64,000 nt of DNA from an uncultured Microthrixaceae bacterium (GCA_942490665.1 CALNXV010000001.1:3661-67660), one strand, 5' to 3'. Shown: positions 36,061 through 42,656, counted from the stretch's first letter. The notes: generated by a model from the letters alone, not told the origin. A program made the numbers and translations.

Positions 36061-36240
36061 CGCGGTCACTCTGGTGCGATGGACGCCGAACTCAGCAGCC
36101 AGTTGGCTGATCGTGGCGCCGGCCAGGTAGGCCGCGATGAGGTCGTGGACGTCAGCGGGGGAGAGGTGTCGCTGGGAAGGACCTGAAGGCCGTCCCTTGA
36201 GGTCCACGAGATGCCGAAGCAGCAGCATCTCAGCGATCAT
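36061..36240 (-). pseudogene. helix-turn-helix protein remnant, same family as 33348-33611
   Basis: GRPSGPSQRHLSPADVHDLIAAYLAGATISQLAAEFGVHRTRV, after which the similarity is lost. Confidence 0.45.
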
Positions 36241-36286
36241 CCGAATCGTGAGGGCGCGGACCGAGTTGGTGGCCGGGCAGCGTCAG

Positions 36287-36296
36287 CCCCCCCCCC
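36287..36296. repeat. C10 homopolymer
   Basis: CAGCCCCCCCCCCGTCGG, lying between the HTH remnant and the GH31 stop. Confidence 0.9.
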
Positions 36297-36324
36297 GTCG
36301 GTCGGGGACAGAGCGGGCGTCTCC

Positions 36325-38661
36325 TCAGATGCGTCGGATCGGTCGATCGAGGGCGTTCCCGGAACGGTCGACCACGTGGACCTCGACGTTCGGCGGGAGT
36401 CCGTCGACGACCACGGTGGGGTCGCCTCGGGTGGCGGCGACCGTCACGTCCGCGCCGTCGACCCGCGCCACGCCCCGCCAGTCCGACCTGGCGGTCGGGT
36501 CGCCGGTGCGCAGGGTCAGCTGGTCGGTGGGGCGCTCGCCGACATGGGCCATGGCTGGGCCGAGCGGGATGAGCGATGCCGCCCGCTGGTAGAGCGGGAA
36601 GTGCTCGATCGGGCTGTGGGTGCTGAGCCATGCGGGGCCGTGGTGGTGCTCGCCGGTGAACCAGTGGACCCAGTCGCCCTCCGGGAGGTACACGCGCCGG
36701 TCGCCATCGGGGTTCGCGACCGGGGCGACGAGGAGGTCGTCGCCGAGCAGCCACTGGTTGCCCAGGTGCCAGGTGGTGGGGTCCTCGGGGTGGTCGACCA
36801 CGAGGGCGCGGGCCAGCGGCACCCCCGCAGCCGCCGCGCGGCGCGCCTGGCCGAGCAGGTACGGAAGGAGCTGGTACCGCAGGTGGAGCAGGTCGCGCGC
36901 CCGCTCGGTGGTGGCGCCGCGGTCGTAGAGCTCGCGGTTGCCGAACCCGTGGATGCGGCTGTGGGAGAGGAACAGGCCGGCCTGGAGCCACCGGATGAGG
37001 AGGTCGTCGTCGGGTTCGCCGAGGAAGCCGCCGATGTCCATGCTCCAGAACGGGAACCCGCACAGACCCAACGACAGGCCGCCGGCGACGTCGGCGAAGA
37101 GGTTGTCCCACCTCGCCGAGGAGTCGCCGCCCCAATGGAGGGGGTACCGCTGGGAGCCGGCGAAGGCCGCCCGGGCCCAGATGATCCACTCACCGGTGTG
37201 CTCGTGCGTGGCTTCGGCGACGGCCCGGTTGTAGAGCAGGGGGTACCGGTTGTGCATCCGGTGACCCGGTGTGCCGTCGTGGTAGACGCCGTCGACGGGT
37301 GCCTGTTCACCGAAGTCGACCTTGATGGCCCGGGCACCGAGGTCGAACAGCTTGCCGAGCCACCGCTGGTGGACCTCGACGGCGTCAGGGTTGGTGAAGT
37401 CGATGCACCCGACACGGCCGCCCTCCCAGTCCGGCGAGTAGCAGAGCCCGATGTCGTAGAGGCTGCCGTCGTGGCGGCGGACGAACCCGTCGACCGCGGC
37501 CAGCTCGTCGAACAGCGCCGAGCCCTCGGGAATGTAGGGCAGCTGCCACAAGGACACCTTCACCCCCATCGCTGCCATGGCGTCGAGGTAGCCGGCGGGG
37601 TCGGGGAACCGGTCGGGATCGAACTCGAGGTCGCAGAGCCAGTCCCGGCGGAACCAGTGGGTGTCGAGGTGCAACACGTCGAAGGGCAGGTCCTCGACCC
37701 GCATCCGCTCGGCGACCTCGAGTGTCTCGGCGGCCGACGAGTAGGAGATCTTCGACTGCCAGAACCCGAACGACCAGTCCGGCGGCACGTTCGGCCGACC
37801 GGTCAGGTCGGTGTAGGCGCGCAGGACCTGGCGGACATCGCCGACGAACACGAAGGCGTCGAACCAGTCGTCGTCCACGGCCACCTGGAGCTGGGGCGCG
37901 GAGCGGCTGCCGATCCAGGCGGTGAGCCGGGCGTCGTGGTTGGCGAACACGCCCCACCCCGCAGTGGTGACCCAGAACGGCACGTTCTTGTAGGCCCTCG
38001 GGGTGACCGTGCCCAGTGCTTCGGTCATGTTCACGTCGATCGTCTGGCCGACCTTGTCGAGTCGGCCGAACTGCTCGCCGAACCCGTAGACGCACTCGTC
38101 GGCCCGGATCGAGAACACCTCGGTGGCCAGCCGGTGACCCGGTACGGGGGTGCGGCACACGCCGGTGGGGAAGGAGTCCCATGCGCCCATCAGGTTCGAC
38201 TCGACGCCGCCCACGGTGCCGACCCGGTGTCCGTCGGCGCGTCCGACCCGCAGCGTCGGCCCGCCCGTCTCGGGCACCTCGACCTCGATGGATGCCTCGC
38301 CGGTGGAGATGGTCGCTCCGGCACCGGTCCGTTCGGCCTGAGCCCCGTCGAGGACCGGCACATCGGTCGCCAGCATCGGCGTGTCACCGGCCGGCACGTC
38401 GGTGCCGAGCGCGAATCGGTAGCGGAAGGTGCGAGGGCCGACCGCCTCGACGCGCACGGTCAGCGAGCCGTCCTCGACCCGCTCGCCGGCGAGTGTCACG
38501 CCGTCAGGGAGTCGTGTGGCGCTGGTGTCGAAGGTGCCGGCGACATCGAGGACGACGAACCCGTCCCCCGACTCGCGGATCGTGGTCCTGGACGGACGGA
38601 ACCGATCGACCTCGAGGCGTTCGAGGTGCCGGGTCGGAGGTCGATCGGTACGAGGATCCAT
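36325..38661 (-). CDS. glycoside hydrolase family 31 (YicI-like alpha-xylosidase/alpha-glucosidase)
   Basis: Intact 778 aa with YGFGEQFG, DVLHLDTHWF, GARAIKVDFGEQAP (nucleophile region), WGGDSSARW and FWSMDIGGF. Confidence 0.9.
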   Translation of the reverse strand: MDPRTDRPPTRHLERLEVDRFRPSRTTIRESGDGFVVLDVAGTFDTSATRLPDGVTLAGERVEDGSLTVRVEAVGPRTFRYRFALGTDVPAGDTPMLATDVPVLDGAQAERTGAGATISTGEASIEVEVPETGGPTLRVGRADGHRVGTVGGVESNLMGAWDSFPTGVCRTPVPGHRLATEVFSIRADECVYGFGEQFGRLDKVGQTIDVNMTEALGTVTPRAYKNVPFWVTTAGWGVFANHDARLTAWIGSRSAPQLQVAVDDDWFDAFVFVGDVRQVLRAYTDLTGRPNVPPDWSFGFWQSKISYSSAAETLEVAERMRVEDLPFDVLHLDTHWFRRDWLCDLEFDPDRFPDPAGYLDAMAAMGVKVSLWQLPYIPEGSALFDELAAVDGFVRRHDGSLYDIGLCYSPDWEGGRVGCIDFTNPDAVEVHQRWLGKLFDLGARAIKVDFGEQAPVDGVYHDGTPGHRMHNRYPLLYNRAVAEATHEHTGEWIIWARAAFAGSQRYPLHWGGDSSARWDNLFADVAGGLSLGLCGFPFWSMDIGGFLGEPDDDLLIRWLQAGLFLSHSRIHGFGNRELYDRGATTERARDLLHLRYQLLPYLLGQARRAAAAGVPLARALVVDHPEDPTTWHLGNQWLLGDDLLVAPVANPDGDRRVYLPEGDWVHWFTGEHHHGPAWLSTHSPIEHFPLYQRAASLIPLGPAMAHVGERPTDQLTLRTGDPTARSDWRGVARVDGADVTVAATRGDPTVVVDGLPPNVEVHVVDRSGNALDRPIRRI

Positions 38662-38838
38662 GCGGAGGCTCCGGTCGAGCTGGGACGGTCAGGCGAGGTG
38701 CGCCGCGACCCGGGGCGCGTCACTCTGGGTACTCCAGCCGAGTGCGGCCGGTCGTTCTGTGTGGGGCCGGCACCGCATCTGTGGTTCGCGGCGGTCGGCC
38801 GGCTGGCCGAGCATCCCGCTGACGTTGAAGCGAGGAGA

Positions 38839-39108
38839 TCAGCCGTGCACCTCGGCCACGTACACCGTTGGCGGGGTGGTGACCCCTGCTTCCTGCATCT
38901 TCGCTGCGCGATCGGGGTCCGACATCATCGGCCCGATGAGCGCCGGGTCGCCCTCGTGGACGATCCAGACCGAGTTCGGGTCGTCGGCGTCGCGCAGGAC
39001 CGCGACGTCCGAGACACCCGCAGCCTGTCGTCCGGGTCGGTCGCCCTCGTAGATCGGCCGCCAGGTGTCGAAGTCCGCGACCTGATGCTGGATGATGATG
39101 TGCGCCAT
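38839..39108 (-). CDS. small cytoplasmic protein, family not recognised with confidence
   Basis: 89 aa from the ATG at 39106-39108: MAHIIIQHQVADFDTWRPIYEGD...VWIVHEGDPALIGPMMSDPDRAAKMQEAGV. Confidence 0.5.
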   Translation of the reverse strand: MAHIIIQHQVADFDTWRPIYEGDRPGRQAAGVSDVAVLRDADDPNSVWIVHEGDPALIGPMMSDPDRAAKMQEAGVTTPPTVYVAEVHG

Positions 39109-39347
39109 GTGAGCCTCGTCTCGGTGGACTCGTTGATGCAGGCACAGTAGCGGCCGCGGTCGCCGCCATGACCGGCCGACCGACATGTCGAAGGTCGCGC
39201 CGGGTGGCAGGTCCCCGGCAGCAGCTCAGCGGCGCTCCGAGACCCCTGTGCGCCGTCCGGTGGCCTCGAGATCGGCCTGCGCGGTCCAGAACTCCTCGCT
39301 TGGGAAGGCGCTGCTCGCTCCATCGGCCGTTGTGGTCGTCGACAGGC

Positions 39348-40643
39348 TCAACGATCGATTCCGCGACGCCAGGCGCTGTACGAGCCGATGGGTCCTGCGG
39401 TCGGGCGCCGGAGCCACGGCCACGGGTGCATCTCGGCGACGCGCAGGCGCGCCACCCGTCGCCGGAAGCCCGGCACGGGCGCGAACGTCACAGCGAGCGC
39501 TCGGCCCTGCAACACGTCGACCGGATCGCCGAGTGAGATCTCGAGGCGGTGGTCGACGGCGAGCTCCGCGAGTGCCTCGGTCAGGAACACGAGGCGCTTG
39601 GACGACAGCCGCAGCGACGCCAGCAGCGGTTCGTCGAACACGAACACGACGGGCAGCCCGGGGTGGGCCGAGAGCGCCGGATCTCGATCTCCGAGCGACT
39701 CGGCGGTGACCCAGACGGCATCCGGTTCGCCGTCCGTGACGACCTCGGACGGGCCGGCGGTGGCGCCGGGCGACGGGTCGCGGCGGAGGAGGCCGACCCG
39801 GTCGACCGGGACGAGCTCCGGGTCGGCCGGCCAGTCCTCGATCGGGCAGTCGTCGCGGAGCTCGCACGAGGTGCAGACCCCGGGTGCCCGGCGTTCGACC
39901 TGGCGGCGGCTGAACCCGTAGGGCTTCGAGGATCCCGCGCCGGTGACCCATTGCCAGCCGAGCCGGTTGGCGGCCCGCGAGCCGTCGAGGAGGTGACGGA
40001 AGAAGTGGTCCTCGCCGTCGGTCCACCGCAGTCCCTCCCGCACCGTCCAGTGGCTCGCCAGCCACATCCGGGTCTGGTTGACCAGCCACCCGTCGCGCTC
40101 GAGCTCACCCAGGGAGAGGTCGAGACACGCCAGTCGCCGCGACCATCCAGCACTCGACGCGGCGCTCCCCGCCGGGTCCGAGCCGGGGGACCGATGACGG
40201 ACGCTGCGGCGGGTGCGCCTCCCCAGACGGGCGTACCAGTGCCGAGCGAACTCCTGCCACAGCAACTCGTCGCGGAACTTCTCGACATCCCGGCCGGGAC
40301 CACCTGCGACGCGGCCCCAGACCTCCGGCAGCGAGAGCAGCCCGTGGCGGATGTACGGCGAGAGCCGGGACGCGCCACGCTCCGACTCCGGGAACACCTC
40401 GTTGCGGCGCCTGGCGTAGCCGGTGACGTCGAACGCGGCGAGCGCAGCGTCGGCGGCGACCTGGCCGCCCGTGATCGACGGAGATCCCCGGACCTCGTCG
40501 CACGTCAGGTGGGCGAGGTGCCGCGTGACGTACGCCTCGGCCGCCGTACGCCCACCACCGGGCAGCGGCAGCGAGGTCACCGCGGTCGTTCGCGGCGGAT
40601 CTGGATCGCACCCGCTGCCGGCGCCGGCGTCCTGGCCATGCAC
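39348..40643 (-). CDS. photolyase/cryptochrome-related protein with FAD-binding domain first and alpha/beta photolyase-like domain last
   Basis: SRLSPYIRHGLLS, LLWQEFARHWY, NQTRMWLASHW, FFRHLLDGSRAANRLGWQWVTGAGSSKPYGF and CTSCELRDDCP, followed by AVWVTAESLGDRDPAL...PVVFVFDEPLL...SKRLVFLTEALAEL. The start (GTG 40641-40643) is uncertain. Confidence 0.7.
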   Translation of the reverse strand: MHGQDAGAGSGCDPDPPRTTAVTSLPLPGGGRTAAEAYVTRHLAHLTCDEVRGSPSITGGQVAADAALAAFDVTGYARRRNEVFPESERGASRLSPYIRHGLLSLPEVWGRVAGGPGRDVEKFRDELLWQEFARHWYARLGRRTRRSVRHRSPGSDPAGSAASSAGWSRRLACLDLSLGELERDGWLVNQTRMWLASHWTVREGLRWTDGEDHFFRHLLDGSRAANRLGWQWVTGAGSSKPYGFSRRQVERRAPGVCTSCELRDDCPIEDWPADPELVPVDRVGLLRRDPSPGATAGPSEVVTDGEPDAVWVTAESLGDRDPALSAHPGLPVVFVFDEPLLASLRLSSKRLVFLTEALAELAVDHRLEISLGDPVDVLQGRALAVTFAPVPGFRRRVARLRVAEMHPWPWLRRPTAGPIGSYSAWRRGIDR

Positions 40644-40716
40644 CCAGTCTGACGTCTCGGTGGGGTCGGCGCCCGGCCGATCCGGACCCGGCGGGGGCGT
40701 GTGCGATCCTGGGCCA

Positions 40717-41148
40717 GTGATCACCACCGAGATCCGGTCGTCCGCCGCCCCGTCCACGATCCACGAACTGCTCGTCGACGTCGACGCCTGGACGGTGTGG
40801 TCGCCGCACGTCGCCTCGGTCGACGCCGAGACGCGACGCGTCTCGGCAGGATGGGTCGGTGCCACCCGGGCGTTCTTCGCGCCCGGCGCGACGTCGATGA
40901 TCGTCGACGACGTCCGACCCGACGGCGGCTACACCTGGCACTCCACGCTCGGCCCGTGGCGCCTCGACTACGACAACCACGTCGTCGCCGCCAGCGGTGG
41001 GAGCACGCTGCGCTTCGCCGCCCGGTTGACCGGGCCGGCGAGCGCTGCCCTCGAGCGGCTCGTCCTGCCGCTGTCGGCGCTCGGCCAACGGCGTCGCATG
41101 ACCCGACTCGCCCGGCTGGCCGAGCTCCTCGAACGCCACGCCGGGTGA
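40717..41148 (+). CDS. SRPBCC (START/polyketide cyclase-like) family protein
   Basis: VITTEIRSSAAPSTIHELLVDVDAWTVWSPHVASV...GYTWHSTLGPWRLDYDNHV. Confidence 0.65.
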   Translation: MITTEIRSSAAPSTIHELLVDVDAWTVWSPHVASVDAETRRVSAGWVGATRAFFAPGATSMIVDDVRPDGGYTWHSTLGPWRLDYDNHVVAASGGSTLRFAARLTGPASAALERLVLPLSALGQRRRMTRLARLAELLERHAG

Positions 41149-41218
41149 CCGCTGCATGCCGCTCGAGGTCCGAGGGCGACGCACCCGGGTCGGCACCCGT
41201 GCGGATCGGCCGGTAGCC

Positions 41219-42154
41219 ATGGGGACCGTGATCAACCGCCTCCGGGACCAGGTCGTCGCATCGACGACGTCGCTGTTCGCCCACGGCCCCAGAGCGCTCG
41301 AGCACACCCTCGACCACCCCGGCGACCCGGGCCTCCTCGGACCCGACTCGGTGTCGTGGCGGGTGATCGGCGACGCCGCCGCCTTCGTGGGCGGGATCCG
41401 AGCGCTCGTCGTGCAGACGGCGCACCCGGAGGTGGTGGCCGGGGTCGAGGATCACTCCCGCTACCGGGACGACCCCTTCGGCCGGCTCAACCGGACCTCG
41501 GTGTACGTCACCGAGACCACCTACGGGTCGATGCCCGAGGTCGACGCCGCCGTTGCGGCGGTCCGCGACGCCCACCGGCCGGTCCGCGGACGGTCCGAAC
41601 GCGACCGCCCCTACAGCGCCGGCCACCCCGAGATGGCGGCGTGGGTCCACAACGTCCTGACCGATTCGTTCCTCGCGGCGTACCAGAGCTACGGCCCGCG
41701 TCGGCTCAGCACCGACGAGGCCGACCGCTTCGTCGCCGAACAGGCCCAGATCGGCGCGCTGCTCGACGCCGCACCGCTCCCCGTGACTGCCGCGGAGCTC
41801 TCGACGTGGGTCGATGAGAACCCGGCGCTTGCGGGCTCCGCCGCACAGGCGAACGCGCTCAGCTTCCTCCGGGACCCACCGCTCCCGTTCGGCGTGAAGG
41901 TCGGCTACCGATTGCTGTACCAGGCCGCCATCCCCACGATCCAGCCCGGCGTGCGCAACGTGATCGGCGCCCAGCCGAGGGCTGCCGACGAGCACGTCGG
42001 TCGGGCGACGGTCCGGATGCTCCGTTGGGCACTCGGCTCGTCACCGTCGTGGCATCTCGCGCTGGTCAGGTCCGGAGCGCCCGTGCCGCCCGGGCTCTTC
42101 CGCCAGCCGTTGCCCGCCGGGGCAGCTGACTCCCCGACCGACCGCCCGACCTAG
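41219..42154 (+). CDS. oxygenase MpaB family (DUF2236) protein
   Basis: GPDSVSWRVIGDAAAFVGGIRALVVQTAHPEVVAGVEDHS...RLNRTSVYV. Confidence 0.7.
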   Translation: MGTVINRLRDQVVASTTSLFAHGPRALEHTLDHPGDPGLLGPDSVSWRVIGDAAAFVGGIRALVVQTAHPEVVAGVEDHSRYRDDPFGRLNRTSVYVTETTYGSMPEVDAAVAAVRDAHRPVRGRSERDRPYSAGHPEMAAWVHNVLTDSFLAAYQSYGPRRLSTDEADRFVAEQAQIGALLDAAPLPVTAAELSTWVDENPALAGSAAQANALSFLRDPPLPFGVKVGYRLLYQAAIPTIQPGVRNVIGAQPRAADEHVGRATVRMLRWALGSSPSWHLALVRSGAPVPPGLFRQPLPAGAADSPTDRPT

Positions 42155-42257
42155 CGCTGCCGGGGGCCACCCCGGTCGGCCGCCCCGGCCAGAGGTCGCC
42201 CCGTCCTGAGGCCGACCCGTCCGCCGAGCAGGTGGGTGCTTCGATAGGTTGCGGGCC

Positions 42258-42656
42258 ATGTCCCCGACCGCACTCGTGGCCGCCGCTCGTGGGTGCCGGT
42301 CGAACGCCCACGTCCCCTACTCCGGCTTCCGGGCCGGGGCCGCGGTCCACGCCGATTCCGGGAGCGTCGTCCCCGGGGTGATCGTCGAGAACGTCTCGCT
42401 CGGGTTGGCGATGTGCGCCGAGCGGGTCGCGCTCTTCTCGACCGTCGCGCTCGGTGCCCGGCCGCTCGCCTTGGCCCTCGTGGCACCGCGAACGGGTGAG
42501 GCCCTCACCTGGCCGTGCGGCGCCTGCCTCCAGGTCGCGCTCGAGCTCGGTGGTCCCACGCTGCCGGTCTACGTCAGTTCGGTCGCACAGGACGCGCCGA
42601 TCAACGAGTCGACCGTCGGCGAGCTCCTCCCGCACGGACCGTTCGTGCGACGCTGA
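42258..42656 (+). CDS. cdd: cytidine deaminase
   Basis: HVPYSGFRAGAAV, CAERVALF and WPCGACLQV zinc motifs. Confidence 0.88.
   Translation: MSPTALVAAARGCRSNAHVPYSGFRAGAAVHADSGSVVPGVIVENVSLGLAMCAERVALFSTVALGARPLALALVAPRTGEALTWPCGACLQVALELGGPTLPVYVSSVAQDAPINESTVGELLPHGPFVRR

Follow-up and report, generated by a model that had tools for sequence, protein, structure and literature searches.

An inverted-order photolyase gene from an uncultured Microthrixaceae bacterium very probably belongs to the four-cysteine subgroup of the NewPHL/SPL class

Photolyases in which the FAD-binding catalytic domain comes first have been described twice. Emmerich 2020 (PMC7736829) named the class NewPHL, attributed to it ~3% of the superfamily and reported a C-terminal Z-domain of ~150 aa; DsNewPHL and MmNewPHL repaired cyclobutane pyrimidine dimers (CPDs) in single-stranded DNA (ssDNA) only. 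Xu 2021 (PMC8476157) arrived at this class separately and called its members short photolyase-like (SPL) proteins; about one third of them, those of subgroups C and Ac, share four conserved cysteines, and subgroup Ac comprises the actinobacterial SPLs with these cysteines. A class I/III or (6-4) photolyase is also present in 94–96% of species carrying NewPHL/SPL, and a 2026 paper treats 'inverted domain topology' as textbook background. Here we analyzed a 64,000-nucleotide stretch of DNA, hereafter the window, from an uncultured Microthrixaceae bacterium (GCA_942490665.1, CALNXV010000001.1:3661-67660), which encodes a photolyase homologue of inverted order on its minus strand at 39348..40580. 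The sequence-only reading that drew attention to this gene knew of no described permuted member and made its case for novelty depend on the order being uncatalogued. That case fell, as the inverted topology was published in 2020–2021 as NewPHL (PMC7736829) and SPL (PMC8476157). The domain order and the CxxCx5C motif are already known, and nothing sets the gene apart from other members of this established family. It is very probably an orthologue of the NewPHL/SPL class within the actinobacterial four-cysteine subgroup Ac, typified by RfSPL of Rhodococcus fascians.

At its maximal extent, the minus-strand open reading frame (ORF) spans 39348..40865 (505 aa), in DNA of 70–75% G+C. An alternative GTG at 40643, which gives 431 aa, had been taken as the start by the sequence-only reading. 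The N-termini of 61 aligned homologues instead match the GTG at 40580 (consensus MxxLPxPxPGRxAAEAF), as does the public gene call for the identical protein (P0001, 410 aa, 100% identity), and because the two agree we placed the gene at 39348..40580. Upstream, the divergent SRPBCC-like gene begins at 40717, and the space is too short for an N-terminal alpha/beta domain, as had been recognized from the sequence. The parts of the gene discussed below, among them those modelled with AlphaFold2 (AF2) and those bearing on an iron-sulfur (Fe-S) cluster, are as follows.

39348..40580, minus strand: NewPHL/SPL-type photolyase gene, GTG start, 410 aa plus stop (ORF listing, P0001, homologue N-termini)
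39831..40580, minus strand: all-helical FAD-binding catalytic domain, about residues 1–250 (PF03441, PDB matches, AF2, Foldseek)
39948..40268, minus strand: span of the CPD-binding and FAD-contact residues (BLASTP against E. coli Phr; conservation in 62 homologues)
40125..40127, minus strand: Cys152 (translation LACLD), proposed first Fe-S ligand, equivalent to RfSPL Cys155 and PhrB Cys350
39846..39875, minus strand: CTSCELRDDC, proposed Fe-S ligands 2 to 4 (translation; three cysteines invariant)
39726..39830, minus strand: linker between catalytic domain and Z-domain, about residues 251–285, with little regular secondary structure (AF2 model analyzed by DSSP; variable columns)
39351..39725, minus strand: Z-domain, residues 286–410, an alternation of five strands and helices that ends in a further helix (AF2)
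39504..39725, minus strand: part of the Z-domain in register with canonical strands and helices 1–3 (PDAVWVTAE...DPVDVLQG; hhalign, weak HMMER)

The catalytic domain was found where the sequence-only reading had put it, at the N-terminus. The sole Pfam family detected was FAD_binding_7 (PF03441), which lies in the N-terminal half and matches residues 103–219 of 410 (E 1.1e-11); PF04244 and PF00875 were also sought and gave no match at E≤1 with the full ORF or at E≤10 with the 410-aa protein. The strongest sequence matches were class I CPD photolyases (1tez, E 5e-21 with a profile; E. coli, 1e-15). Class I photolyases in the PDB aligned via their C-terminal halves only, to query residues ~40–216, with residues 205–398 of 1tez aligning to residues 131–313 of the 505-aa ORF, and the NCBIfam matches were likewise limited to the C-terminal halves of class I photolyases. 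A full-length AF2 model built from a 62-sequence alignment (predicted local distance difference test (pLDDT) 92.3, pTM 0.92) showed a helical catalytic domain with pLDDT >90, and a Foldseek search with this model returned photolyases and cryptochromes over 212–270 columns. These structural alignments cover the FAD domain only, because the domain order is permuted and there is no solved NewPHL/SPL structure.

Conservation of the active site points to a CPD-type enzyme. E. coli Phr (from NC_000913) shares 32% identity with the protein over 201 aligned positions in BLASTP, an alignment that pairs E105 with E. coli E274, W108 with W277, N168 with N341, R171 with R344, M172 with M345, W186 with W359, D199 with D372, A204 with A377, N205 with N378, G208 with G381, W209 with W382 and W211 with W384. 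All 12 CPD/FAD residues are invariant or nearly so in the 62 homologues. The ten class-I-type CPD/FAD residues of the SPL class (E. coli E274, W277, N341, M345, W384, R344, D372, A377, N378 and G381) are all identical here, and every one of the CPD/FAD residues listed for SPLs in PMC8476157 is conserved. The proximal and middle tryptophans are kept (W209 and W186), while the position of the distal one (E. coli W306) is occupied by P132, in a variable, low-pLDDT loop where the alignment is less certain; loss of the distal tryptophan has been reported for both SPL and NewPHL (PMC8476157, PMC7736829). Compared with class I CPD photolyases (E. coli Phr, Synechococcus 1TEZ, Thermus 1IQR), the protein has a homologous FAD domain with identical FAD and CPD contacts, and their alpha/beta domain appears homologous to its Z-domain. 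It differs from them in its reversed order, in lacking the distal tryptophan and the inter-domain linker with the phosphate-binding loop, in having no counterpart of the E. coli Phr region beyond residue ~396, in having no known antenna chromophore and in its added Fe-S cysteine motif.

The CxxCx5C motif picked out in the sequence-only reading is present as C236-x2-C239-x5-C245 (CTSCELRDDC, 39846–39875); a fourth cysteine, Cys152, had been overlooked. C152, C236, C239 and C245 are all invariant in the 62 homologues, and their C-x83-C-x2-C-x5-C spacing is the same as that of RfSPL C155, C239, C242 and C248. From C155 to C248, every RfSPL number quoted in PMC8476157 equals the residue here plus 3, although it counts against the assignment that this correspondence is one of quoted residue numbers and not a direct sequence alignment. 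The Fe-S cluster of RfSPL itself was shown by iron and acid-labile sulfide content, 410-nm absorbance and electron paramagnetic resonance (EPR) (PMC8476157). By analogy with RfSPL, the four cysteines place the protein with the Fe-S SPL subgroup Ac and are predicted to bind a cluster.

The comparison with described members agrees with this placement. RfSPL (PMC8476157) and the window protein both come from Actinobacteria, are of similar length (406 and 410 aa), lack an N-terminal alpha/beta domain, and share a class-I-like CPD site, a tryptophan dyad rather than a triad, the four-cysteine spacing and a C-terminal extension of ~150 aa. They differ in lineage, the closest named relatives of the window gene being Acidimicrobiales/Ilumatobacter-type metagenome-assembled genomes (MAGs), and in the W108–C152 loop, which is 4 residues longer in the window protein. 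The NewPHL proteins of Dinoroseobacter shibae (DsNewPHL, A8LJA9) and Methylobacterium mesophilicum (MmNewPHL, M7YZC8) have the same CPD-type site, two-tryptophan path and Z-domain with a conserved tryptophan and GF motif (here W290 and G371-F372), but belong to subgroup A, without the four cysteines and the Fe-S cluster. Two further hallmarks of the NewPHL/SPL class were found in the window protein: an N-terminal catalytic domain without an N-terminal antenna domain, and a C-terminal Z-domain (125 residues here) with the conserved tryptophan and GF motif. The gene is accordingly better labelled an NewPHL/SPL-type (Fe-S) CPD photolyase than a generic "FAD-binding domain-containing protein".

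Relatives of the gene are numerous. More than 4,410 database proteins matched, and the 120 listed carry only PF03441 and, P0001 aside, are 61–88% identical to the query; nearly all are 388–445 aa long, most of them 400–445 aa, with 90–97% query coverage, with exceptions such as P0109 (324 aa, 75% coverage). Source names among these listed proteins include Acidimicrobiales and Ilumatobacter. A relative is also encoded by at least 569 genome stretches of a collection in which each species has a single genome. Of these, the 80 best (L001–L080, the related loci referred to below) mostly span residues 1–408 in one frame and are labelled mostly Acidimicrobiales, Acidimicrobiia or Ilumatobacter; Klenkia and a Mycolicibacterium MAG are also represented, as are a few MAGs with other labels, such as Gammaproteobacteria, Spirochaetales and Acidobacteriota. 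These relatives show how widespread the class is in Acidimicrobiia and other Actinomycetota.

Homology modelling of the Z-domain failed in both earlier studies (PMC7736829, PMC8476157). Emmerich 2020 (PMC7736829) found that the order of its predicted secondary-structure elements was at odds with a Rossmann fold, reported a covariation/contact map that resembles the antenna domain and places the Z-domain at the flavin's pyrimidine edge, and left the origin open between an 'early domain swapping event' and an 'ancestral minimal photolyase'. In the window protein, W290, W389 and W404 are invariant among the 62 homologues and PVPG(F) at 368–372 is invariant or nearly so; the motif at G371-F372 reads GFR, compared to GFF in the NewPHL/SPL class. 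The full-length AF2 model showed residues 288–385 as four strand-helix repeats followed by a strand, and a domain-only model of the Z-domain gave the same strand/helix pattern (pLDDT 81). When this domain-only model was searched with Foldseek against 350,542 PDB chains, the top matches were class II CPD photolyase (8oy9_B, E 4e-3; 8oy6_B, TMq 0.53) and mouse CRY1 (7wva, E 7e-3). The leading matches (MmCPDII, mouse CRY1) had E 4e-3 to 1e-2, prob 0.98–1.0 and TMq 0.46–0.53, and we infer that in them the Z-domain maps onto the N-domain of the targets; generic Rossmann-like and universal-stress proteins ranked below.

A canonical photolyase for comparison was sought in the window and the 80 related loci, and none was found; the canonical profile was built from 13 N-terminal domains, those of E. 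coli phr and 12 diverse plasmid-borne photolyases. With hhalign, Z-domain positions 25–98 aligned to canonical positions 3–85 (P 9e-5, score 32, probability ~60%) in a register that runs from the first strand (DAVWVTAESLGDRDPAL against HLVWFRQDLRLHDNLAL). By comparison, 200 column shuffles scored 12.2 on average (sd 2.5, max 23.9) and the reversed alignment scored 12, corresponding to z ~8. Weak HMMER stretches cover the same segment at 39504..39725. A Z-domain profile built from the subgroup of the window protein and searched against 1.84 billion proteins found 282 clusters at 50% identity, in which the domain is C-terminal in every full-length match, and reached neither a transitional architecture nor canonical photolyases. 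Judged by profile matches, Z-domains are strongly diverged between subgroups, since only 282 clusters were found.

Taken with the predicted fold, these comparisons suggest that the permutation is real, with the Z-domain probably homologous to the canonical antenna domain and moved from the N-terminus to the C-terminus. Weighing against this, Pfam found no family in the last 160 residues, even at E≤10, NCBIfam likewise found no alpha/beta-domain family, an HMMER profile made from the last 149 residues found no photolyase among PDB sequences, and the homology is moderate, with hhalign at ~60%, Foldseek at E ~4e-3 and no Pfam or HMMER match. The alpha/beta photolyase domain that the sequence-only reading had seen at the C-terminus was therefore borne out by AF2, Foldseek and hhalign and not at the plain HMM level; that reading was to be given up if the C-terminal segment missed the alpha/beta domain, which is literally what the HMM searches returned, while structure and profile-profile comparison favor an alpha/beta domain. 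On balance, we lean toward the view that SPL/NewPHL and canonical photolyases are circular permutants of one two-domain ancestor, related via the relocated Z-domain. In that case the Z-domain might have retained a pocket for a ligand or an antenna. Were the C-terminal domain a displaced antenna, the class would be a permuted two-domain photolyase and not a primordial single-domain one. This question bears on the debate over photolyase/cryptochrome origin; it is one about the family and not about the locus, and published work already points toward an answer. The probable antenna homology is the one result here that goes beyond the two papers, on evidence that is moderate and not decisive, and the residual value of the analysis lies in this added evidence for the Z-domain as a displaced antenna-type domain.

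Beyond the architecture, residue conservation, predicted fold and family membership described above, we propose cofactors, substrate and activity by analogy with characterized relatives. The N-terminal helical domain would bind FAD in a class-I-like pocket, with a R171–D199 salt bridge and N205 beside flavin N5. A CPD would be held by E105, W108, N168, M172 and W211; blue or near-UV light would excite reduced FADH−, which would donate an electron to the dimer, split it and receive the electron back. Oxidized FAD would be photoreduced via the shortened tryptophan dyad W209 and W186. A [4Fe-4S] or [3Fe-4S] cluster, situated where the catalytic domain ends as it is in FeS-BCP, would be bound by Cys152, Cys236, Cys239 and Cys245, and its role is probably structural or redox-related. 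The Z-domain is predicted to pack on the catalytic domain and seal the flavin from solvent, the role played by the canonical N-terminal antenna domain. Of the relatives, RfSPL holds FAD, iron, acid-labile sulfide and an EPR-active cluster and repairs CPDs, not 6-4 photoproducts, in oligo(dT)16; its overexpression raises photoreactivation, and its knockout has a minor effect (PMC8476157). By this analogy, the most likely function is that of an auxiliary FAD/Fe-S CPD photolyase acting on ssDNA. Several points weigh against it: after purification, RfSPL showed little activity and was poorly occupied by its cofactors, and the knockout phenotype was not significant (PMC8476157), ssDNA specificity is known solely from subgroup A, whose members lack the cysteines (PMC7736829), and repair may not be the main role.

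The last of these points leads to an alternative that we regard as improbable, in which the protein is an NewPHL/SPL member that acts mainly as a light or redox sensor, a bacterial cryptochrome using FAD and the Fe-S cluster, with residual repair. Xu et al. raised this possibility (PMC8476157), and it would accommodate the low specific activity of RfSPL, the knockout without significant change in photoreactivation, the C-terminal extensions that recall cryptochromes and the DUF2256-DUF3253 zinc-ribbon protein encoded at 22 of the 80 related loci, mostly directly beside the gene. However, the CPD-binding and catalytic residues that the NewCRY class has lost are here invariant or nearly so across the 62 homologues, three family members repair CPDs in vitro, the protein has no signalling output domain, and the window offers no conserved regulatory neighbor.

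Less probable still, and in our view very unlikely, is that the gene encodes a (6-4) photolyase of FeS-BCP type, truncated or rearranged, with 6-4 photoproducts as its substrate. Such a protein would explain why the cysteines resemble PhrB C350/C438/C441/C454 and why the Foldseek matches of the full model include PhrB (5lfa) and the V. cholerae 6-4 photolyase (8a1h), with a highest TMq of 0.45. The FeS-BCP/CryPro proteins (PhrB, 4DJA) do have four cysteines at equivalent places, proposed as [4Fe-4S] ligands in them as in the window protein, and a similar catalytic fold; they differ in their canonical order, DMRL antenna, 6-4 active site and PF04244 domain, and in a last cysteine spacing of x12 (CxxCx12C in PhrB) where the window protein has x5. 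Neither the canonical order nor the PF04244 DPRP signature of FeS-BCP was found here. The sequence searches returned no FeS-BCP chain and were led by the class I CPD photolyases cited above (1tez and E. coli), all five residues of the CPD-type active site (E, W, N, M, W) are in place, and RfSPL failed to repair 6-4 photoproducts. The FeS-BCP resemblance proposed in the sequence-only reading therefore holds for the PhrB-like arrangement of the cysteines and not for the catalytic domain, which is nearer to class I CPD photolyases.

The same domain order, collinear over residues 1–408, recurs in dozens of genomes, and no indel inside the ORF was found in near-identical sediment and soil metagenome contigs from Logan, which are few, fragmentary and of low depth. 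The survey of homologues and the check for a hidden frameshift or split proposed with the sequence-only reading thus both came out in favor of an intact gene. 'Joints' reported in Logan contigs were considered as rearrangements and rejected as short matches from related genes. With more than 4,410 homologues and at least 569 genome stretches that are mostly collinear and of similar length, a frameshift or fusion is unlikely. That the order is an artefact, by frameshift, assembly chimera or fusion of two ordinary genes, is already effectively refuted and very nearly negligible in probability: the window probably derives from a MAG and the fragmentary contigs of public runs give thin read-level confirmation, but the same single ORF, length and order occur at 57–88% identity in most of the 120 listed proteins and in 80 independent genome loci, the near-identical contigs show no indel, AF2 packs both domains into a single compact model (pTM 0.92) and the Z-domain is C-terminal in every full-length database protein.

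Around the gene, no other photolyase-family gene was found in the window. Between it and the divergent SRPBCC-like gene lies one further feature.

40581..40716, strand not assigned: divergent intergenic region of 136 bp, presumed promoter region

A sigma-70-like promoter and a LexA-box-like site were sought in this interval and elsewhere around the photolyase gene and neither was found, nor was a terminator. The SRPBCC-like gene (40717–41148, plus strand, 143 aa) matches Polyketide_cyc2 at E 3.8e-5, below the Pfam cut-off, and adjoins the SPL gene in only two of the 80 related loci (L062 and L007); it is probably not a functional partner of the SPL gene. It is followed by an MpaB/Lcp-type oxygenase domain protein (41156–42154, plus strand; PF09995, E 4e-50), a gene of which type lies near the SPL gene in only 3 of the 80 loci, and by a cytidine deaminase (42249–42656, plus strand). 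On the other side, the minus strand also carries, ~240 bp downstream of the photolyase gene, a putative gene of 89 aa (38842–39108), starting MAHIIIQHQVADFDTWRPIYEG, which has no Pfam match and no counterpart in the 80 related loci; a GH31 glycoside hydrolase (36325–38661, minus strand) lies further downstream. None of these window neighbors (the SRPBCC-like, MpaB-like oxygenase and GH31 genes and the 89-aa ORF) is kept beside the gene elsewhere among the 80 loci. Many long ORFs that overlap or oppose real genes, such as those at 36211–39150 (plus), 39549–40652 (plus) and 40105–41307 (minus), are the usual shadow ORFs of ~72% G+C DNA and not genes; one such shadow ORF, of 979 aa, lies opposite the GH31 gene.

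In many Acidimicrobiia loci the SPL gene lies within a kept neighborhood, seen in the flanks of L001–L080 with the neighbors named by eye. Among the proteins encoded there are an NhaA-type antiporter (15 loci), a large DEAD/DEAH-box helicase (13), topoisomerase I (10) and a small anti-sigma-factor-like protein (16). The window gene stands in another context, which suggests relocation.

The DUF2256-DUF3253 gene mentioned above encodes a fusion of ~130 aa (Pfam E 4.6e-17 and 2e-29), and the 64-kb window holds no copy of it. The 22 loci include L001 (5627–5971; the closest genome relative), L058 (5530–5922) and L023 (5633–5992); in most of the 22 the fusion gene is the immediate neighbor of the SPL gene, as a rule upstream of it and in the same orientation. 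A DUF2256 gene also flanks a canonical Sphingomonas photolyase in L087, and this recurrence suggests a link between photolyases and DUF2256.

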